From assembly GCA_040757335.1 (NCBI GenBank), contig JBFLXB010000003.1, forward strand, positions 53,899 to 117,898: a DNA stretch of 64,000 nucleotides. Reading direction: 5' to 3'. Below are positions 42,415-64,000 of the stretch, one piece after another. The stretch's first letter is position 1, and each line of letters opens with the position of its first letter. The stretch is from Nitrospirota bacterium. Lineage in GTDB: Bacteria; Nitrospirota; Nitrospiria; 2-01-FULL-66-17. Below the pieces are notes generated by a model that had not been told where the DNA came from, did no database searches, and worked only from the letters and a program-made list of their open reading frames with translations. Made by a program: the position numbers and the translations under genes.

Positions 42415-45189
42415 ATGGCTGAAGAGTTAATTTCAATTACCACGGACAAACCTGCGGTCCAGCTCACGATCGACAACGAAGTCGTCAATGTGCCGGAGGG
42501 GACGTCGATCTACGACGCGATCGTGGGGATGGGCAAGACTATCCCGAGCATGTGTTACCACTACACGTTCAATCCCTTTGGGTCCTGCGGCGTGTGTCTG
42601 GTCGAGGTCGAGGGGAAGAAGGCGCCGGTGCGATCGTGTACGTCGCCGGTTGCCGCGGGAATGATCGTGCGCGTGGACACCAAGGCCATGTTCGACGCGC
42701 GCAAAAAGGCGGTCGAGAAACACCTGCAGACGCATCCGCTCGATTGCCCGGTGTGCGACGCGGACGGACACTGCGAGCTGCAGGACATGAGCTTCAACTT
42801 CGGCATCGTCCAGATCGGCGAGGTCAAGCAAAAGGGGTTGCCCGAAGATCGGCGCAGCACCGTGCTCGATTTCAACATGAACCGGTGTATCCTGTGCGCG
42901 CAATGCATCAACATCTGCAAAGAAGTGGTCATGGTGGACGCCCTGCAGTTTTTCAAGAAGGGCGGCTTCACGCACGTGGTGGCCAAGGGCGACAAGGCCC
43001 TGGAGTGCGAATTTTGCGGCGACTGCCTGGCGGTGTGCCCGGTGGGCGCGATCACCAACAAGTTCTCCAAGTATCTCTACAAACCGTGGCAGCTCAAGCG
43101 GACCGTGACCGCGTGCAACTACTGCGCGGACGGCTGCCAGATGCGCGTCGAGGTCAAGGACGACGCGGTGGTGCGCGTGACGTCGCTGCTCTCCTGGAAG
43201 GACAAGTGGGACGACCACACTGCGACTGTGGACGGCCACGGCGGGTTGTGCGTCAGGGGGAGGTTCGGGTTCGCGTACATCAATAGCCCCGAGCGCCTGA
43301 AGAAACCGCTGATTCGCAAGGACGGCCGACTCGTGGAGGCGTCGTGGTTCGAATCGACCAACGAAGTCGTCAGCCGGCTGAAGGCGATCAAGGCCCAACA
43401 CGGCCCCGACGCCGTCGCCGGGTTGATCACCGCCCGGTGTACGAACGAGGATCTCTACGCGTTCCAGCGGTTCATGCGGCAGGTGGTGGGCACGAATCAA
43501 GTGGATTCGAGCAGCCGCTACGGCCACGCGGTCTACGTGGAGGCGATGGAGCGCGCGTTGGGCGTGGTGCAGCCCACGGTCTCGTTCCGCGACCTCACGC
43601 TCGCGCGCGCGATTCTGGTCGTCGGGTCGGACGTGACCGAGACCAATCCCATCACGGCGCTGCGGATCAAGGACGCGTTCAGCAATTTCCACAGCCAGTT
43701 GATCGTCGCGCATTCGATGCAGACCAATTTGGCCAAGCTGGCGCCGTATCCCTATCAAATTGCGGTGGCTTCGGAGGGTGCATTCATCCAGGGCTTGACC
43801 AAGGCCGTGCTGGAGGGGGAATTGGTCCCGTCCCGCGTCGTCAATGAGCACGGGACGGCGCTGAGTGCGCTCAAAACCGCGGTTGGGACTCTGTCGTGGG
43901 ATGCGCTGTGTGCCGCAACCGGCCTCTCTCGCGAGGCGTTCACCGAAGCCGCCCGAGTCTTCATGTCGGACGGTTCGCGCGTGATCGTGCTCGGCGAGCA
44001 GATCGTGGATCGGCCGGACGCGTACGCCAACGTGTTGCGGGTCGCCGACCTCATGCTGGCCGCCGGGATGGTGGGACAACGTGGTTCGGGCGTGCTGCGC
44101 TTGTGTGAAGAGAACAACGAGCGCGGCGCGGTGGCGGTGGGCGCGATGGCGGATCGGCTGCCCGGCGGATCCCGGTACGGCGACGTTGCGGCGCGGGCCA
44201 AAGTCGAGACCGCGTGGGGCGGCGGGCTGCCGAACGGTGGGGCGACGCTGACCGAGATTCTCGACGGGATCCGCGCGGGCCGAATCAAGGCGTTGTACGC
44301 CGTGGGCGAAAACCCGTTGGGGACGTTGCCCTCGAATGCGGACGTGCGCGACGCGTTGACGAAGCTCGATCTGGTGATCGTGCAGGACGCGTTTCTGACC
44401 GAAATGGGTGACGTCGCCCACATCGTGCTACCGGCCGCACTGGCGGCCGAGAAGGACGGGACGTTCCTGGACGGACAGGGGAAACTGCAGCCGGTCGTAC
44501 GGGCGCTGGATGCTCCGGGTGAGGCTCGAAGTGATTGGGAGATTTTTTCGGAACTGGGCCAGCTCATGGGCGCGCCGTTCGATTACACGGCGCCGGAGGA
44601 AATCCGGCGCGAATTGCTCCAGATCGCGCCGGGGGTGTTCGAGATGCCGACGCCGGTCGCGCGGCGCGACGACCGGGCGACCGACCTGACGGCTCGGTAC
44701 GCGCAGCCAGCAGTGGCTGGCGACGCGCCCAGCAAGGAGTATCCCTTCGACCTGTCGCTCTACCAGGTGCTCTATCATTCGGGCAAGATGTCCACCCGAG
44801 ACAAAGGGCTGCTCGAAATCCATGCCAAGAAGCTGCTACAAATCTCGGCGAAAGACGCCGAAGCGCTGGGCGTCACTGATGGCGGCCGGGTGAAGGTCAC
44901 CTCGCCGTATGGGTCGGTCGAGGTCGGCGTCGAAATCAGCCTCGACCTCCCGAACGGATCGTGTCGGTTTCCCGAACACTTCAACGACCCGGCAGTGAGA
45001 GATCTGTTGCCAATGCGCGTAGATCCGGTGAGCAAGGCGCCGGTGTTCAAGTCGGGACGGGTGCGGATCGAGAAAGTCGCCCCCCCACCCGGCCCTCCCC
45101 CGCAAGGGGGGAGGGTGGAAAATCACACCGTGACCATTCCCTCCCCCTTGACGGGGGAGGGCGAGGGAGGGGGTGTGTCCGGCGCATGA
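42415..45189 (+). CDS. nuoG: NADH-quinone oxidoreductase subunit G-like (2Fe-2S, 4Fe-4S, molybdopterin-oxidoreductase fold)
   Basis: N-terminal 2Fe-2S region (CYHYTFNPFGSCGVCLV), His-ligated HPLDCPVCDADGHC, then two 4Fe-4S motifs. Long MoCo-like domain. The last ~35 codons are encoded by GC hairpin repeats. Confidence 0.8.
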   Translation: MAEELISITTDKPAVQLTIDNEVVNVPEGTSIYDAIVGMGKTIPSMCYHYTFNPFGSCGVCLVEVEGKKAPVRSCTSPVAAGMIVRVDTKAMFDARKKAVEKHLQTHPLDCPVCDADGHCELQDMSFNFGIVQIGEVKQKGLPEDRRSTVLDFNMNRCILCAQCINICKEVVMVDALQFFKKGGFTHVVAKGDKALECEFCGDCLAVCPVGAITNKFSKYLYKPWQLKRTVTACNYCADGCQMRVEVKDDAVVRVTSLLSWKDKWDDHTATVDGHGGLCVRGRFGFAYINSPERLKKPLIRKDGRLVEASWFESTNEVVSRLKAIKAQHGPDAVAGLITARCTNEDLYAFQRFMRQVVGTNQVDSSSRYGHAVYVEAMERALGVVQPTVSFRDLTLARAILVVGSDVTETNPITALRIKDAFSNFHSQLIVAHSMQTNLAKLAPYPYQIAVASEGAFIQGLTKAVLEGELVPSRVVNEHGTALSALKTAVGTLSWDALCAATGLSREAFTEAARVFMSDGSRVIVLGEQIVDRPDAYANVLRVADLMLAAGMVGQRGSGVLRLCEENNERGAVAVGAMADRLPGGSRYGDVAARAKVETAWGGGLPNGGATLTEILDGIRAGRIKALYAVGENPLGTLPSNADVRDALTKLDLVIVQDAFLTEMGDVAHIVLPAALAAEKDGTFLDGQGKLQPVVRALDAPGEARSDWEIFSELGQLMGAPFDYTAPEEIRRELLQIAPGVFEMPTPVARRDDRATDLTARYAQPAVAGDAPSKEYPFDLSLYQVLYHSGKMSTRDKGLLEIHAKKLLQISAKDAEALGVTDGGRVKVTSPYGSVEVGVEISLDLPNGSCRFPEHFNDPAVRDLLPMRVDPVSKAPVFKSGRVRIEKVAPPPGPPPQGGRVENHTVTIPSPLTGEGEGGGVSGA
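45093..45161. repeat. two 23-nt GC hairpins with an identical 9-bp stem (ccctccccc/gggggaggg) embedded in the nuoG 3' end
   Basis: 45093-45115 ccctccccc-gcaag-gggggaggg and 45139-45161 ccctccccc-ttgac-gggggaggg. Confidence 0.6.
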
Positions 45190-57241: not shown

Positions 57242-57976
57242 TCAGCGGTCGTGGCAGATGAAGCAGAGATCCTGGGCGGGCGCGCGGAGAAACGGCGCGC
57301 TGCCGTTATCGTGGGGGTCGTGGCAGCTGTCGCATTGGACCCGTCCCTCCGAGGTGCGGACGACCTGAACGCCCGGACTCGCGTCGTCCGCCGACACCGC
57401 GGGGACGGCCAGCAAACGCGAGGTGGGACCCGTCGGCAGGACCAGATCGCCGTTGCGAAGGTCGGGAATCGACCAATACCGGTATTGGTTGACCGTGGGG
57501 CGCTCGGGGATGAACTTGCCGTTGGCGCGGCGAGGGTAGACCACGTTGTACGGGTGGTCGAACTTCTGCGCGTCCGGGTCGCCCATTTGGTGAACCTCCT
57601 GGCCCAACACGCCGTCGTGACACCCGAGGCACGCCGTCGAGGACCCGCCGGTGGCCAAGGAGACGGTGTAGGCCGGTGCCCCTCGTTGCCAGAGCGGGGG
57701 TGCGGGAGGGGGCTCCGCGTCGAGAGGCGCACTCAGCGCGGGTGGGACCGCGACCTCCGGAGCTTGCGCTTCGTCCGCTCGCGGCGAGGTCGCGCCCGGA
57801 CCGACGCGCCCGGGTCCTTCCGCGTGGCAGCCGTAGCAGACGCGGCTTCCGATCGGGAACTCGGTCCGTGCAAAGAAGTTGTGCGGGCTGGACAGGACAG
57901 TTTCGTACGGCTCGAGCGCTGCAGCGCCCGTCGGGGCCAACGCGACCAGCGTCGCGAGGAGCAACCACCGGATCAT
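57242..57976 (-). CDS. periplasmic tetraheme cytochrome c
   Basis: Signal peptide [20 protein letters not shown]. Four CxxCH motifs: CYGCH, CLGCH, CDSCH, CFICH. Start overlaps the glmM stop by 4 nt. Confidence 0.75.
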
Positions 57977-59376
57977 TGGTCCACCGTCGAACCGGCGCCC
58001 ACACGACTTCTCAGCGCCTCGGCCAACTCTTCGGCGACGCGAGAAATCACGTGGAAGTCCTCGCCCTCCACCATCACCCGCAGCAGCGGTTCGGTTCCGG
58101 AATACCGGACGAAGATTCTCCCCTGGGGGCCCAATCGACGCTCCAAGTCGGACACGATTTGGGTGTAACCCTGAATGTCGGCGAGTTCGCGGCGCTCGGC
58201 CACGCGGACGTTGACCAGCACCTGGGGAAAGACCGTCATGCACGCGCTGAGTTCGGACAACCGTTTCCCGGTGCGCTCCATCGTGGCGAGGACTTGGAGC
58301 GCGGTAATGAGTCCGTCGCCGGTGGTGTTGAAATCCAGGAAGATGACGTGTCCAGACTGTTCGCCGCCGAACACGCACCCGTCTTTGAGCATCCGCTCGA
58401 GCACGTACCGATCGCCGACCGCGGTGCGCACGAGCGAGATGCCCGCGTGGCGCAACGCCAGTTCCAACCCGAGGTTGCTCATGACCGTGGCGACGACGGT
58501 GTGTCCCGCCAGTCGCCCCGCACGCTCCATCTCGAGCGCGCACAACGCCAGGATTTGGTCGCCGTGCACGACTTTGCCCTGCTCGTCGCAGAACACCACG
58601 CGGTCCGCGTCGCCGTCGTGGGCGATGCCGATGTCCGCGCGGTGCGCCGCCACCGCTTTCTGCAGGGCTTCGGGGTACAGGGCTCCGCAGTGCTGATTGA
58701 TGTTGGTGCCGTTGGGCCGGTCTCCGATCGTGATCACCTCGGCACCCAACTCGCGCAGCACCGTCGGCGCGACCTTGTACGCGGCGCCGTTCGCGGTGTC
58801 CACGACGATCTTCATGCCGTCGAACTGCATGCCCTTCGGCAACGTGTTCTTGACGAATTCGATGTAGCGGCCGTCGGCGTCGTCCACGCGGAACGCCTTG
58901 CCGATCTCCCGCGCGGTGGGACGTTCGTGGTCGATCGCCCCGGAGAAGATCAACTCTTCGATTTCTTGTTCCACCCCATCGGGCAGCTTGAAGCCGTCGT
59001 GTGAAAAGAACTTGATGCCGTTGTCTTCGAACGGGTTGTGCGAGGCGGAAATTACGACGCCGGCGTCGGCGCGGAGGCTCTTGGTCAGAAAGGCGATGGC
59101 CGGGGTGGGCATCGGCCCCACCAGCAGGACGTCGACGCCCATCGAGCAGATGCCGGCCGTCAGGGCGCTCTCCAGCATATAGCCGGATAGGCGGGTGTCC
59201 TTTCCGATCACGAAGCGGTGGTGTCCGGTCCGGTGCTTCTTGAAGAGATAGGCCGCCGCTCGCCCCAGCTTCATGGCGGTTTCGGCGGTGACCGGCTCGA
59301 CGTTGGCGGTGCCGCGAACGCCGTCGGTTCCGAAGAGTCTGCGCTCGACGCTCAGTCTCGACACGATGTCGGTCAT
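57973..59376 (-). CDS. glmM: phosphoglucosamine mutase
   Basis: GTDGVRG is the conserved N-terminal motif. The phosphoserine-loop motif is also present. Confidence 0.85.
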
Positions 59377-59430
59377 CTTAGCAGGCAGGTGCCACCTTTT
59401 CAACCAACGCGCTGCGCGGTGCGAAGCGGG

Positions 59431-60363
59431 TCAGGGCGTCTCGCAGCATCCGGTCCCCAGCAGCCCCACCCCGGCCAGCGTCAGCCCCACTCCGAGCCAT
59501 TCCCTCCCGGCGAGGCGCTCCTGGAGGCGATGTCGCGCGATCAGGATCGTAACCAAGGGATAGGCCGAGGCGATCGGGGCCGCCACCGCGGCCGGAGCGT
59601 CGCGAAGGGCGACGCCGTACGCGAAAAATGCCGTCAGGTCGAGCAACGCGGCCGCGACCACCACGCCCCAGAGTCCGTTGCGAGGCTCTGCGCGAGGTGC
59701 TGCGACGCTGGCGGACGAGGCCGGTTCGCGAGGCGTGCCGCTGGATCGGGATCGCCCGATCAGCCACCAGGTGCTGATGATCGCCAAAACCTCGAGACGC
59801 AGGGTGGCGACGGGAACGAACGCTCCCGCGCTCCGCACCGCGGGCAACAGCAATGCCGTCCCGGATCCCCACGCCAGCAGGGTGACCACCCCCGCGCGGA
59901 TCCCCTGCCGACGTCCTATCGGGGCCAGGGCGCCGATCGCGCCGGGGTCGGCTGAGAGGACGCAGATTCCGATCAAGGTCAGGCCGATGCCCCCGAGCCG
60001 GGCTCCGGACGCGGCTTCGCCGAAAAAACCGATCCCGGCCAGCACCGGCACGGCCGCGCCCGCGCTGCTGATGGGGCTGACCAGCGAAATCGCGCCGACG
60101 CGAAGACCGTAGAAGAACGCCAGATACCCGACCACGAAGCAGCCAGCGGCGGGCGTGATCCACACGAGATCGCGCGTGTCGGGGAGGGGCGCACGGAGGA
60201 TGGCCCACAACGACAACAGGACGGGCACACCGACCAGTTGGATGCGGAGCAGCGCACCAATTTCCCCCACCCGGCGCGTGACGCGCGCGGCGAGATAGTC
60301 CGCCACGCCCCATGCGAGACAGGTGACGACCGCACAGGCGATTCCGAGCGCCGGGGCGGTCAC
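59431..60363 (-). CDS. EamA/DMT-superfamily transporter
   Basis: 10 TM segments with two EamA repeats. Confidence 0.7.
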   Translation of the reverse strand: MTAPALGIACAVVTCLAWGVADYLAARVTRRVGEIGALLRIQLVGVPVLLSLWAILRAPLPDTRDLVWITPAAGCFVVGYLAFFYGLRVGAISLVSPISSAGAAVPVLAGIGFFGEAASGARLGGIGLTLIGICVLSADPGAIGALAPIGRRQGIRAGVVTLLAWGSGTALLLPAVRSAGAFVPVATLRLEVLAIISTWWLIGRSRSSGTPREPASSASVAAPRAEPRNGLWGVVVAAALLDLTAFFAYGVALRDAPAAVAAPIASAYPLVTILIARHRLQERLAGREWLGVGLTLAGVGLLGTGCCETP

Positions 60364-60382
60364 GGCGGGAATCGTCTGGCGA

Positions 60383-61114
60383 TTATCGTCGGATCCCGCA
60401 CGCCCGCGCGACGCCGTCTCGGTATGCGAGCCACAGATCGAGCGAACGCTCCATGGCGTGTACGACGCGCTCCTGGGCTTCAGGAGCGGTTGCGTAGTCC
60501 ATCACCATCTTCCAGGCGTCCCGGCGGTGGAGCCCTTCGACGGCTCCGTGCGCGCGGGCCAGCTCCAAGTACCGCGGAGCCACGTGATGGTACTTCACCA
60601 GCGGGTGTTCGGCGATCTTTCGCTCGATATCGGGTTCCTCCCGGACCGTGCCGTTCAACACCGCACGCTCGTGGACGCTCCCCTCGACAAAGATCGTGGC
60701 GACCGCCGCGCCCTCGATCCACGAGGCCGTGGTGGTGACTTGGTCAAGCCATCGCCGATAGGCCGCGCTTTCGGGCAGCAATTCAACGGTGTCGAAGTCC
60801 TGGGGGGAAAACCCGAGGCCTTCCATCAGATACAGGAAGAGGTCGGGGTGGGCGCGCCCGCGGGTCAGCCCGCCGGTTTCTTCCTCGTACAGGTTCTCGG
60901 CGAGCGCCCGCCGAACCGGAGTGGGCGGGTTCTTGCCGTGCACGCGGGCCAGAAAAACGGGGAAATCGCGGACGTAGACCGCGTACTCCTGTTGGAAGTG
61001 GGTCTTGAGTTGATCGACGGTGACCGCGCCGGTCGCGAACGCGTTCCACGCCCAGTGGTCCTTGTGATCCATCACGTTCAACAACCGCTCTCGAAACGCA
61101 TCGTGCGTCGTCAT
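60383..61114 (-). CDS. heme-oxygenase-like fold protein (TenA/PqqC family)
   Basis: ERLLNVMDHKDHWAWNAF...QQEYAVYVRDFPVFL is the typical TenA/PqqC helical core. Start at MTTHD. Confidence 0.5.
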   Translation of the reverse strand: MTTHDAFRERLLNVMDHKDHWAWNAFATGAVTVDQLKTHFQQEYAVYVRDFPVFLARVHGKNPPTPVRRALAENLYEEETGGLTRGRAHPDLFLYLMEGLGFSPQDFDTVELLPESAAYRRWLDQVTTTASWIEGAAVATIFVEGSVHERAVLNGTVREEPDIERKIAEHPLVKYHHVAPRYLELARAHGAVEGLHRRDAWKMVMDYATAPEAQERVVHAMERSLDLWLAYRDGVARACGIRR

Positions 61115-61236
61115 ACCGGTCCTCCGTGCCCTTCGATGTGCGGACGTCATTGTAACACAGCGCTGTGAGAAGCCGTGCGCGCCGACCATCACGATGTCCA
61201 GTCGGTCGCCTGGAAATGACCGGCGCGGGATCTGTG

Positions 61237-61266
61237 TTGACAAACGTTTTCCGCGCGGCATACAAT
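61237..61266 (+). promoter_or_regulatory. sigma70 promoter (TTGACA-N18-TACAAT) immediately upstream of the DsrE-like gene. Implies a leaderless or very short-leader transcript
   Basis: -10 hexamer ends 5 nt before the ATG at 61272. Confidence 0.35.
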
Positions 61267-61271
61267 TCGCC

Positions 61272-61610
61272 ATGAAAATCGGTATCTTGCTGACCACCGG
61301 CAGCGATCATGAGAACGGATACCTCGTGGGGAAATTGTCGGAGGCGTGGCTGAAACAGGGCCACGAAGTCGACCTGTTTCTGATGGGGGAGGGCGTGTAT
61401 CACGCGCAGGCCATCGCGTCTCCCAAGCGACCCTACGCGGCGATGCCGGCGTTGCTGGCCCTGGGTGCCAAGGTTGCCGTGTGTGGCGTGACCGCGGAGG
61501 CGCGGGGCGTGTCCGAAACCGACCTATATCCCGGGATTGAAATCGCAAGTCAGTACGAGCTGTCCCGCATCGTGGACCGAGCCGATCGGTTCCTCACCTT
61601 CGGCGACTGA
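61272..61610 (+). CDS. DsrE/TusD-like sulfur-relay protein
   Basis: MKIGILLTTGSDHENG...VAVCGVTAE. DsrE/DsrF-like family with a conserved Cys. Confidence 0.6.
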   Translation: MKIGILLTTGSDHENGYLVGKLSEAWLKQGHEVDLFLMGEGVYHAQAIASPKRPYAAMPALLALGAKVAVCGVTAEARGVSETDLYPGIEIASQYELSRIVDRADRFLTFGD

Positions 61611-61616
61611 TCGACG

Positions 61617-61961
61617 GTGAAAGGCGTGGTGGTGGCCGTCCGGAGCAGCCCCCTGACCACGGGGCGGGTTCATGAAGCGCTGCGGATGGCACTCGGAATG
61701 ACGCTCTCGAATCACCGCGTCACGGTGGTATACACGGGCGACGGTGCGTCTGCCGCGCTGACGCTGAACGGCGAAATCCTGCATCGCCCGGGGCTCGCCG
61801 AGTCGCTGGAGCTGCTGGACGCGTGCCAGATTCGAGAGGTGGTCGAGCGGGAGGCGTTGGCGCCCGGCAACCGATCCGCCCTGCGAAAACGCGTGGAACT
61901 TTTGGATCGCGACGCCGTAGTCGGGCTGCTCGCGGCGTCGGATGTGGTGATTGCATGGTAG
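61617..61961 (+). CDS. DsrF/TusC-like protein
   Basis: VVVAVRSSPLTTGRVHEALRMALGMT is DsrE/F fold. Confidence 0.5.
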   Translation: MKGVVVAVRSSPLTTGRVHEALRMALGMTLSNHRVTVVYTGDGASAALTLNGEILHRPGLAESLELLDACQIREVVEREALAPGNRSALRKRVELLDRDAVVGLLAASDVVIAW

Positions 61962-62218
61962 CCGGCCGTGCGCTCCATATCGTCCGACGGCGAGCGGACG
62001 GTCTGGCCATGTCCGTGATCGCCGCCCAGAGCGGCGTGCGACCGGTTGAGGTGGTATTGGTCCAGGACGGGGTCTTCGCCGACATTCCCCCGCCACTCGC
62101 GGTCTGCGTCAATGACGAGGACGTGGTCGCGCGCGGTATCGACACGCGGTATCGGCGGGTGGGATACGACGAGATCGCAGAAATGGTCTGTGACGCCGTC
62201 TGCGTCACGGTGTGGTGA
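61955..62218 (+). CDS. DsrH/TusB-like small protein
   Basis: 88 aa. Third gene of a DsrEFH-like triplet. ATG overlaps the preceding stop. Confidence 0.4.
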   Translation: MVAGRALHIVRRRADGLAMSVIAAQSGVRPVEVVLVQDGVFADIPPPLAVCVNDEDVVARGIDTRYRRVGYDEIAEMVCDAVCVTVW

Positions 62219-62242
62219 CGCGGGACGAACCGCAGAGAAAGG

Positions 62243-62500
62243 GTGGAGCACACGACGATGGGTGCAGCGTACACGATCGATCACGTGTTGGACTGCAAAG
62301 GACTGAACTGTCCGTTGCCGGTGATCAAGACCAAAAAAGCCATTGAAAAGATGACGGTCGGCCAAATTCTGCAGATGGTGGCGACCGATCCGGGGTCCAA
62401 ACCTGATATGGCGGCGTGGTCAAAGAGCACGGGTCACGAATTGCTCGAAACACGGGAAGAAGCGGGTTTGTACACGTTCTTCATCCGGAAGACGAAGTAA
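62243..62500 (+). CDS. tusA: TusA-family sulfurtransferase
   Basis: LDCKGLNCPLPVIKTKKAI contains the CPxP motif. Confidence 0.7.
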   Translation: MEHTTMGAAYTIDHVLDCKGLNCPLPVIKTKKAIEKMTVGQILQMVATDPGSKPDMAAWSKSTGHELLETREEAGLYTFFIRKTK

Positions 62501-62535
62501 CGACCGTGCGGCCGCGATCAATCATGAGGTGAGCG

Positions 62536-63135
62536 ATGGGGACGACGTCACAAGATCTCGATCAATTGGTGGCGGCCAAAGTCAAGGAGCTGGCCGAACA
62601 CCGACTTGAAGAACTTGTCCGCGAACAGGTCAAAGTTGCGCTCGACGCGGAAGCCCGTAAGGCATCTCGGCCCAAGCGGATCGCCATCGTCTCCTCCAAA
62701 GGGACACTCGACGCCGCCTACCCGCCGCTGATTCTGGCCACCACGGCGGCCGCACTGGACATGGAGGCGGGGGTCTTTTTCACCTTTTTCGGGCTCCACA
62801 TCCTGAAAAAGGAAGGCATCGAGAAGCTCAAATTCGTTCCGCTGGCCAACCCGGCGATGCCCATGCCGATGCCCAACCTGGTGGGGGCGCTTCCGGGTAT
62901 GACCGGGCTCGCCACGTTCATGATGAAACAGACCATCAAACACAAGCACATCGCGTCGATCCCCGAGCTCATGGATCTCGCCAAGGAGAGCGGAGTCAAG
63001 CTCTGGCCGTGTCAGATGACCATGGACATGATGGACATCAAGCGGGAGGATCTGATCGAAGGCCTCGAAGACCCGGTCGGGGCGGCGACGTTTTTGGAGT
63101 TCGCTTCACACAGCGACATCACGCTGTTTGTGTGA
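62536..63135 (+). CDS. DsrE2-like (DsrE/DsrF family, 'peroxiredoxin family protein'-type) sulfur carrier with an N-terminal helical extension
   Basis: RIAIVSSKGTLDAAYPPLILATTAAALDMEAGVFFTFFGL...LWPCQMTM. Confidence 0.5.
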   Translation: MGTTSQDLDQLVAAKVKELAEHRLEELVREQVKVALDAEARKASRPKRIAIVSSKGTLDAAYPPLILATTAAALDMEAGVFFTFFGLHILKKEGIEKLKFVPLANPAMPMPMPNLVGALPGMTGLATFMMKQTIKHKHIASIPELMDLAKESGVKLWPCQMTMDMMDIKREDLIEGLEDPVGAATFLEFASHSDITLFV

Positions 63136-63154
63136 CGACCAGTAACGACGCGAC

Positions 63155-63179
63155 AAGGGCACCCGTAGGGGGTGCCCTT
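63155..63179 (+). terminator. GC-rich hairpin (10-bp stem, aagggcaccc-gtagg-gggtgccctt) after the DsrE2-like gene
   Basis: Perfect 10-bp stem with no U-tract. High-GC genomes often lack one. Confidence 0.35.
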
Positions 63180-63233
63180 CGCGTATCGGAGATCCGCGTG
63201 GGCGCGGATGGCGACGGACAAGGAGGAGGACTG

Positions 63234-63416
63234 ATGTCGGATATTTTGGTGGTATCGTCGAAGATCAAGAAGTTCGTTCGGGAGAAAGCCGGGTTCAATA
63301 CCTCGGCGGAGACGCTGGAGGCGCTCAGTCAGCGGGTTGAGAAGATCTGTGCCGACGCGATCGAGCGCGCGCGGGCCGACGGACGCAAGACCGTCAAAGC
63401 GCGTGATATCGTCTGA
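63234..63416 (+). CDS. bacterial histone-fold protein (DUF1931 / HBb-like singlet histone)
   Basis: 61 aa. MSDILVVSSKIKKFVREKAGFNTSAETLEALSQRVEKICADAIERARADGRKTVKARDIV closely resembles bacterial histone singlets. AGGAGGAGGA Shine-Dalgarno 5 nt upstream. Confidence 0.6.
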   Translation: MSDILVVSSKIKKFVREKAGFNTSAETLEALSQRVEKICADAIERARADGRKTVKARDIV

Positions 63417-63467
63417 GCGCCGGCGGAGCCAGAGGCTGTGGATGGTGCCGGCGGGGCGAAATACCGT

Positions 63468-63496
63468 TTGACACGTTTGGGCAGGCCCCGTATAAT
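63468..63496 (+). promoter_or_regulatory. consensus sigma70 promoter (TTGACA-N17-TATAAT) for rho, followed by a ~220-nt leader
   Basis: Exact consensus hexamers with 17-nt spacing. Confidence 0.55.
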
Positions 63497-63721
63497 ATGA
63501 GCCGGTTTCCGTATCTTCCAAGCGCTGATCCCCAGACATATTCGCGGTGGTAGGGACATCCAACCCCCAAGTACGATTTGAACACCAACGGGCTTCGCAG
63601 TAGGACACACTAACCGAACGGACCACACTGTCCAACGCACGGGGATAAGCGCATTTGCGCGACACTGGCGAACGGTGGGATCGCGCGCGTGGGGCGTGAT
63701 CTCAAGCCGGTAGGAGGACCC

Positions 63722-64000
63722 ATGAATCTGAGCGAACTTAAAGAGAAGACGATCGCGGACCTGAACGAAGTTGCCAGGGACCTGAAAATCGAAGGGGCCA
63801 GCAACCTGCGAAAGCAGGAACTGATCTTTGCGATCCTACAGGCGCAGGCCGAGAAGAACGGGACGATCTACGGCGAGGGAGTTCTCGAGACGCTGCAAGA
63901 CGGTTTTGGGTTCCTGCGTTCGCCGGACTACAACTACCTCCCCGGTCCGGACGACATCTACATTTCCCCGTCACAGATCCGTCGGTTCAATCTGCGGACC
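63722..64000 (+). CDS. rho: transcription termination factor Rho, N-terminal part (continues beyond the window)
   Basis: [39 protein letters not shown]...[33 protein letters not shown]. Confidence 0.9.

Follow-up and report, generated by a model that had tools for sequence, protein, structure and literature searches.

An HBb-type histone encoded between a sulfur-relay gene cluster and rho in a Nitrospirota genome

The histone gene and its translation signals

We analysed a stretch of 64,000 nucleotides from a Nitrospirota metagenome-assembled genome (MAG) (GenBank assembly GCA_040757335.1, contig JBFLXB010000003.1, positions 53,899 to 117,898 of the forward strand; hereafter the window), in which an earlier note, made from the sequence alone, had singled out a short open reading frame (ORF) just upstream of rho as the gene of a bacterial histone-fold protein. 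The ORF (Table 1) begins with ATG and ends with TGA, and its 61 codons include the stop, so that the product is 60 residues long and not 61 as had been stated. This product (MSDILVVSSKIKKFVREKAGFNTSAETLEALSQRVEKICADAIERARADGRKTVKARDIV; 6.7 kDa) is basic, with a pI of ~9.6, and contains letter for letter the three segments that had been quoted from it (VVSSKIKKF, NTSAETLEAL and ADGRKTVKARDIV). The strong Shine-Dalgarno sequence reported in front of the gene is likewise there (AGGAGGAGGA); its first GGAGG core ends 7 nt 5' of the ATG, and a GGAG-type motif was found within 20 nt 5' of the start at every one of the 25 Nitrospirota loci checked. Judged from the Shine-Dalgarno sequence, high expression of the histone is plausible.

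The gene is under strong purifying selection, the ratio of nonsynonymous to synonymous substitution rates (dN/dS) being 0.02-0.16 against orthologues with 71-86% DNA identity, at which synonymous sites are saturated or near-saturated. Fourteen independent metagenome contigs encode the identical protein, each time flanked by the same genes, and a first homologue search returned 88 homologues, mostly of 60-61 residues, whose alignments start at the methionine of the histone. With this low dN/dS, the 14 contigs and the 88 homologues, the ORF is a true gene and not a product of chance. A longer reading of 135 residues from a GTG at 63009 overlaps dsrE2 in a different frame, and the N-terminal extensions that some gene calls give to this histone are unconserved.

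Table 1. Features of the histone gene and its neighbourhood, in window coordinates
Feature	Position	Strand	Basis or remark
Coding sequence, HBb-type ("bacterial dimer", alpha3-truncated) histone, 60 residues	63234..63416, stop codon included	+	translation, PDB phmmer, PF00808, dN/dS
Shine-Dalgarno sequence AGGAGGAGGA	63221..63230	+	sequence; GGAG-type motif conserved in relatives
Helix alpha1, residues 2-19; S8-S9-K10 N-cap motif and K12, K13, R16, K18	63237..63290	+	DSSP on AlphaFold model
Loop L1, residues 20-24 (GFNTS), with N22-T23-S24	63291..63305	+	AlphaFold model
Helix alpha2, residues 25-48 (24 residues), dimer core L31, V35, I38	63306..63377	+	AlphaFold model
Loop L2, residues 49-55 (DGRKTVK): D49, clamp R51, K52-T53 DNA-binding motif, clade-specific K55	63378..63398	+	AlphaFold model
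Truncated helix alpha3, residues 56-58, one turn; R57 (DNA contact), D58 (R51 clamp partner)	63399..63407	+	AlphaFold model
Promoter-like site TTGACA-N18-TACAAT at head of dsrE-dsrF-dsrH-tusA-dsrE2 cluster, 11/12	61237..61266	+	promoter scan
DsrE-like gene	ends at 61610 (Pfam match from the MKIGILL Met at 61272)	+	Pfam
DsrE/F-like gene	61617..61961	+	
DsrH-like ORF, weak	61955..62218	+	
TusA gene	62243..62500	+	
DsrE2 (sulfur carrier) gene	62536..63135	+	
GC-rich hairpin, 15 pairs with 2-nt bulge, no U tract, between dsrE2 stop and histone	63148..63184	+	fold of 63136-63240, z = -3.95
rho promoter, perfect TTGACA-N17-TATAAT, 12/12	63468..63496	+	promoter scan; 3' of histone stop
rho	from 63722, past window end	+	3' of histone

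Homology, predicted fold and conserved residues

A phmmer search of all PDB chains returned as its best match the histone HBb (Bd0055) of Bdellovibrio bacteriovorus (8FVX, 8CMP), with an E-value of 1e-18 and a gapless alignment of residues 1-60 on 1-60, in which 34 of 60 positions (57%) were identical. When a family profile built from 33 aligned relatives was searched against the PDB, HBb scored 100 bits (E-value 4e-28), the archaeal HTkC and the leptospiral HLp scored 44-47 bits (E-values 3e-11 and 2e-10, respectively), and the other solved histones reached at most 47 bits, with E-values of 1e-9 for HmvA and 1e-5 to 5e-3 for the Asgard and HMf-type histones. The earlier note had thus placed the product rightly among singlet histone-fold proteins of the HBb kind. 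Among models of single families, PF00808 (CBFD_NFYB_HMF) was passed narrowly over residues 29-59 (E-value 2.3e-4) and matched all 33 aligned relatives at an E-value of 0.01 or less, and the NCBIfam model NF043032 (archaea_histone) gave a significant score that fell below its cutoff. A Pfam scan of the product found histone-fold models only and no other domain. HBb-type singlets belong under PF00808, as alpha3-truncated histones of the "bacterial dimer" class.

Beyond these relatives the family is extensive, and 1,348 clusters (50% identity) matched the profile at an E-value of 1e-3 or less and 455 at 1e-10 or less, doublets and fusions included. Many of the top profile matches were proteins of 120-270 residues with two tandem HBb-like folds or a fused histone fold (P0089-P0105 and others, e.g., P0089 with 133 residues and an E-value of 1e-39, and P0092 with 274 residues); these are probably naturally occurring doublets and fusions within the HBb-type family.

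An AlphaFold2 model computed on the family alignment had a mean predicted local distance difference test score (pLDDT) of 88.3, and DSSP assigned helices to residues 2-19, 25-48 and 56-58. As modelled, the chain adopts a histone fold in which alpha2 is shortened and alpha3 makes a single turn, so that the alpha1-L1-alpha2-L2-alpha3 arrangement by which the earlier note had proposed to check its assignment was recovered in this single-chain prediction. The predicted alpha2 is about one turn shorter than in archaeal histones, and a HMMER alignment placed a four-residue deletion there relative to archaeal HmvA. In a Foldseek search of the PDB the top five matches were all HBb entries (template modelling (TM) scores 0.74-0.77, root-mean-square deviation 2.0-2.2 A, 57-59% identity), followed by HTkC and HLp.

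We then mapped onto the product the ten DNA-contact residues named for HBb (PMC11317129), and all ten were kept: S9, K10, K12, N22, S24, K52, T53 and R57 are identical, and the two changes, T8S and K16R, are conservative. Positions 8, 9, 10, 12 and 16, in alpha1, are conserved, and N22, T23 and S24, which correspond to DNA-backbone contacts of HBb (PMC11317129), are invariant in the family alignment, as are R51, K52, T53 and K55 in L2 and R57 and D58 in alpha3. T23 and A25, which make contacts in the HBb crystal, are identical in the Nitrospirota histone, as are D49 and the clamp formed by R51 and D58, and the dimer core is kept or conservatively changed (V11I, L31, I35V, L38I, I59). The RKTxxxD motif with its R-D clamp, S9-K10, K12, K13 and K18 are all present and (near-)invariant in the clade. 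Most of the positions mapped from HBb are invariant or nearly so over 25 Nitrospirota and 54 Bdellovibrionota sequences, with the Nitrospirota varying at positions 8 and 16.

The "bacterial dimer" class of alpha3-truncated histones was defined by sequence clustering (Schwab et al., PMC11390915) and comprises singlets of ~60-65 residues with an alpha3 of 3-4 residues and an alpha2 that is 4-5 residues shorter than in nucleosomal histones. In its sequence and predicted structure the Nitrospirota histone has every testable defining feature of this class (PMC11390915), namely clustering with HBb, a singlet fold, a short alpha2 with a truncated alpha3, RKTxxxD, and the alpha1 lysines together with the S-K motif. 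What it shares with HBb (PDB 8FVX, 8FW7, 8CMP, 9EZZ, 9F0E) extends from the fold and the lack of any other domain to the S9-K10, N22-T23-S24 and RKT elements, the R51-D58 clamp with D49 and the hydrophobic dimer core. The two proteins differ at the C-terminus, where the Nitrospirota histone lacks the four-residue tail (IDHL or a near variant) found in all 54 Bdellovibrionota sequences (60 versus 64 residues), and at three internal positions, where it has K55 for M55, A42 for G42 and R45 for S45 and is therefore more basic around L2. They differ as well in their hosts, a predator in the case of HBb and a Nitrospirota MAG in that of the present histone, which is known from sequence.

The archaeal histones HMfA and HMfB share the histone fold, the RKT(I/V)xxxD motif in L2 and alpha3 and, as predicted for the Nitrospirota product, dimerisation through alpha2, but they matched only weakly (E-values 0.003-0.03), the Nitrospirota alpha2 is predicted to be ~4 residues shorter with an alpha3 of one turn, and the product falls below the archaea_histone cutoff. 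Bacterial singlets are reported to lack the sprocket arginine and the tetramerisation residues (PMC10627809).

Proposed function and competing readings

We consider it highly probable, from homology, conserved residues and the structural model, that the gene encodes an HBb/Bd0055-type histone that acts as a homodimeric, sequence-independent DNA-bending or DNA-coating nucleoid protein. By homology, a histone-fold homodimer would form by antiparallel packing of the alpha2 helices of two chains, and it would bind DNA irrespective of its sequence through the backbone phosphates of the minor groove. Contacts could be made in two ways, one through the paired L1 and L2 loops, with N22-T23-S24 of one chain and K52-T53 and R57 of the other, and one through the N-terminal turn of alpha1 (S8-S9-K10, K12 and R16). 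Binding would bend the DNA or, at high density, coat it, as expected of an architectural, nucleoid-associated protein. HBb itself is reported to be essential, abundant and localised to the nucleoid (PMC10627809) and to be a dimer in solution that binds DNA non-specifically by minor-groove phosphate contacts (PMC10627809, PMC11317129); by analogy the Nitrospirota histone may be abundant too. The Shine-Dalgarno motif at 25 of 25 loci and the sigma-70 promoters described below for several other Nitrospirota loci fit a well-expressed, stand-alone gene family.

Several points weigh against this reading. The stand-alone family scores were marginal (21.8 bits against a gathering cutoff of 21.4 for PF00808) or below cutoff (31.2 bits against 50 for archaea_histone), and the binding mode of HBb is itself disputed, with edge-on filaments or coating seen in the crystal (PMC10627809) and bending reported elsewhere (PMC11317129). 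K55, R/K45 and the lost C-terminal tail could alter affinity or oligomerisation relative to HBb. A literature search found no experiment or expression data for any Nitrospirota histone, and the expression level is uncertain since no promoter of its own was found for the gene in this clade.

Among the alternatives, the one that survives best is that the protein is a histone of the face-to-face (FtF) type, forming a stable tetramer that wraps ~60 bp of DNA in place of a bending dimer, as do the DNA-wrapping tetramers of HLp from Leptospira perolatii (PDB 9QT0-2) and HTkC from Thermococcus kodakarensis (9F2C) (PMC12701072). These two were the next-best matches by both sequence and structure (Foldseek TM 0.68-0.71), and they share with the Nitrospirota product the alpha3-truncated fold, the RD clamp and the S-K motif that opens alpha1. 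In an alignment with HLp, R45 coincides with the tetramer contact R49, where HBb has a serine, and R/K45 is typical of the Nitrospirota clade (PMC12701072). The other four specific HLp contacts, however, are unmatched (S52, N53, T61 and F63 are replaced by A48, D49, R57 and I59; PMC12701072). Of the FtF interface residues R49, N53 and R55 (HLp numbering), the first and last have the counterparts R45 and R51, of which R51 is the universal clamp arginine, and the equivalent of N53 is D49, as in HBb. Identity was 57% to HBb against 33% to HLp and 41% to HTkC, and the family profile scored HBb more than twice as high in bits; we therefore regard a wrapping tetramer of this kind as decidedly unlikely.

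The protein might also be a sequence-specific or local regulator of the sulfur-relay operon or of rho, as suggested by the name "NFYB/HAP3 family transcription factor subunit" that NCBI has put on an orthologue from Candidatus Manganitrophus. PF00808, which the product passes, is a model that also covers NF-YB, and in this clade the gene lies in the interval from dsrEFH-tusA-dsrE2 to rho with no consensus promoter of its own. NF-YB structures, though, matched the family profile at E-values of 0.08-1.3 only, no NF-YC-like or NF-YA-like partner was seen, and the conserved contacts are to backbone phosphates and not to bases (PMC11317129). The position between a sulfur-carrier cluster and rho, to which the earlier note had drawn attention, is correct, with dsrE2 and rho as the flanking genes, but it is clade-specific and indicates no functional link. 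The order dsrE-dsrF-dsrH-tusA-dsrE2, histone, rho was seen only in the closest relatives, namely the contigs that carry the window's own histone (L001-L006) and four GTDB species (L007, L008, L009 and L013) with histones at least 86% identical to it, and neither rho nor dsr genes were found within 5 kb of the histone at the other Nitrospirota loci or at any Bdellovibrionota locus checked. As rho also has an essentially invariant promoter of its own, we take its adjacency to be positional rather than functional and reject a functional link between the two genes; a regulatory role of this sort is very improbable.

The earlier note had assigned the product to DUF1931. In a further reading, the protein would be a DUF1931-like histone fold with no DNA binding and with another role, such as protein-protein interaction. 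There is a weak match to PF09123 (DUF1931), with an E-value of 0.002, and 24 of the 33 relatives matched at E-values below 0.01. The 18.7 bits of this match are, however, below the gathering cutoff of 21.8, it covers positions 1-53 of a 138-position profile, and the family profile recovered no DUF1931 pseudodimer structure from the PDB even at E-values up to 10. The resemblance to DUF1931 proteins such as Aquifex Aq_328 (1R4V) and the Thermus protein 1WWI is a distant similarity of histone folds confined to the first half of the PF09123 model; they are doublets and form a class apart, pseudodimers from which the DNA-binding residues are reported to be missing (PMC11390915, PMC12701072). The Nitrospirota histone, by contrast, is a single 60-residue fold that keeps them all. 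We therefore rejected membership in DUF1931, and a non-DNA-binding role of that type, largely refuted by these results, is extremely improbable; the PF09123 search that had been proposed as a check failed to reach its cutoff. That the frame arose by chance, or was mistaken for a gene in GC-rich intergenic DNA, as its mere 60 residues and lack of a consensus promoter might suggest, is already refuted by its dN/dS, the confident fold prediction, the conserved Shine-Dalgarno sequence, the 88 close homologues and the 1,348 matching clusters, and we give it practically no weight.

Neighbourhood, distribution and significance

Scanned under relaxed sigma-70 settings, the 300 nt 5' of the histone gene contained no promoter in the window, L007, L008, L009 or L013, and a standard scan likewise found none. 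Several other Nitrospirota loci have sigma-70 promoters scoring 10-11/12, with the -10 element ending 33-79 nt upstream of the histone start. From the start of the cluster to the histone ATG, no site other than the promoter-like one at its head scored at least 9/12 in the window or in five relatives, and the hexamers of that one do not vary among them. This site ends 5 nt before an ATG (MKIGILLTTG...) at which the Pfam DsrE match begins. The short distance and the invariant hexamers suggest that the dsrE-dsrF-dsrH-tusA-dsrE2 mRNA is leaderless and that the true start of the first ORF lies downstream of the listed 61194. The site is a candidate promoter for a transcript that would also carry the histone, and in this clade the histone gene probably shares its transcript with the sulfur-relay operon; just 37 nt separate it from dsrE2 in L009.

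In the gap between dsrE2 and the histone lies a hairpin whose stem (GGGCACCC/GGGTGCCC) is conserved in four of six loci (the window, L001, L007 and L013) and absent in L008 and L009; it is possibly a partial terminator or an RNA-stability element. Another hairpin, 3' of the histone stop (63418-63454), is predicted to be no more stable than its shuffled versions (z = 0). No intrinsic terminator with a U tract was called in 61000-64000, against 2.5 expected from shuffles, and GC-rich hairpins that lack U runs follow genes at 63148-63184, 63192-63209 and 63418-63454, which together hint that this lineage uses hairpin-only or Rho-dependent termination. An Rfam search of 63100-63760, which spans the two intergenic regions and the leader of rho, gave no match at an E-value of 1 or less.

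The promoter of rho was compared in six loci: TTGACA is invariant, and the only change in the -10 hexamer is TATACT in L009, the other five having TATAAT. In the leader that follows, which is ~225 nt long, C outnumbers G, with a negative GC skew over 63460-63660, and some blocks, GATCCCC for instance, are conserved. This leader is reminiscent of the Rho-autoregulated one of E. coli.

Searches of the window by tblastn with the histone and with E. coli HU and IHF, made for paralogues and other nucleoid proteins, gave chance-level matches only, one of which (43462-43596) falls inside a 924-residue ORF. On the minus strand, the neighbours over 57242-61297 are a multihaem cytochrome c with paired CXXCH motifs (~57242-58000), a phosphoglucosamine-mutase-like gene (57973-59403), an EamA transporter (59431-60363) and a gene for a haem-oxygenase-like/TenA-family iron enzyme (60383-61297).

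HBb-type histones persist under strong purifying selection in a monophyletic set of Nitrospirota comprising 25 species-level genomes out of the 80 best GTDB hits, Candidatus Manganitrophus among them. In a neighbour-joining tree of 27 Nitrospirota and 54 Bdellovibrionota sequences the Nitrospirota formed a pure clade, and mean histone identity was 0.71 within Nitrospirota and 0.59 between the phyla, which argues against recent inter-phylum transfer; a recent horizontal transfer from Bdellovibrionota is thus not supported. K55 is diagnostic of the Nitrospirota, the Bdellovibrionota having M55. The Candidatus Manganitrophaceae MAG SCUR01 has two histone copies (L016 2677-2853 and L030 747-923), of which the one in L030 has a stop codon after residue 32 and may be a pseudogene or an assembly error. 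Two MAGs labelled Pseudomonadota (L060) and Bacillota (L075) have a typical Bdellovibrionota-like HBb with an IDHI/IDHL tail, and mis-binning or mislabelling seems more likely than true occurrence. Where the present histone is flanked by dsrE2 and rho, the 44 Bdellovibrionota-type loci (L026-L084) have, as judged by eye from the translation, a convergent ligA-like gene ~80 nt downstream of the HBb gene, usually with a ~500-residue gene 5' of the histone and with gatC/gatA-like genes further downstream.

The exact protein is in GenBank as MEW6681942.1, "MAG: histone-like protein [Nitrospirota bacterium]", and members of its cluster carry the JGI label "histone H3/H4". A protein 92-95% identical to it, OGW62712.1 from Nitrospirae bacterium RIFCSPHIGHO2_01_FULL_66_17 (our L013), is listed as a bacterial singlet histone in Supplementary Table 1 of Hocher et al. 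2023. We found no mention of Nitrospirota in the main texts of the key bacterial-histone papers or in the text supplements of Schwab et al. 2024, and a literature search on histones of Nitrospirota or Manganitrophus found nothing relevant. The histone is thus a correctly identified, ordinary member of a known family, and the protein and its close relatives are already catalogued.

For annotation, the practical consequence is that proteins of this kind should be called histones in place of "hypothetical" or "NFYB/HAP3 transcription factor subunit", and that they do not belong in DUF1931. Bacterial histones have been recognised as true chromatin proteins only in 2023-2025, and just two, HBb and HLp, have been characterised. 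The Nitrospirota carriers are free-living lithotrophs, not predators or spirochaetes, and their histone offers a second, diverged test bed (57% identity, another C-terminal end and additional basic residues) for the way in which DNA is organised by HBb-type dimers. One carrier, the manganese oxidiser Candidatus Manganitrophus, grows in enrichment co-culture.

The possible operon coupling adds modest interest. In its fullest form, an unlikely proposition in our view, the histone gene, its own promoter lost, would now close the sulfur-relay operon as the final gene under the invariant, probably leaderless promoter at 61237-61266, and K55, R/K45 and the loss of the tail may give it a mode of DNA binding or oligomerisation other than that of HBb. 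If the histone does belong to the sulfur-relay operon, the amount of a chromatin protein would be coupled to the expression of sulfur-oxidation genes.

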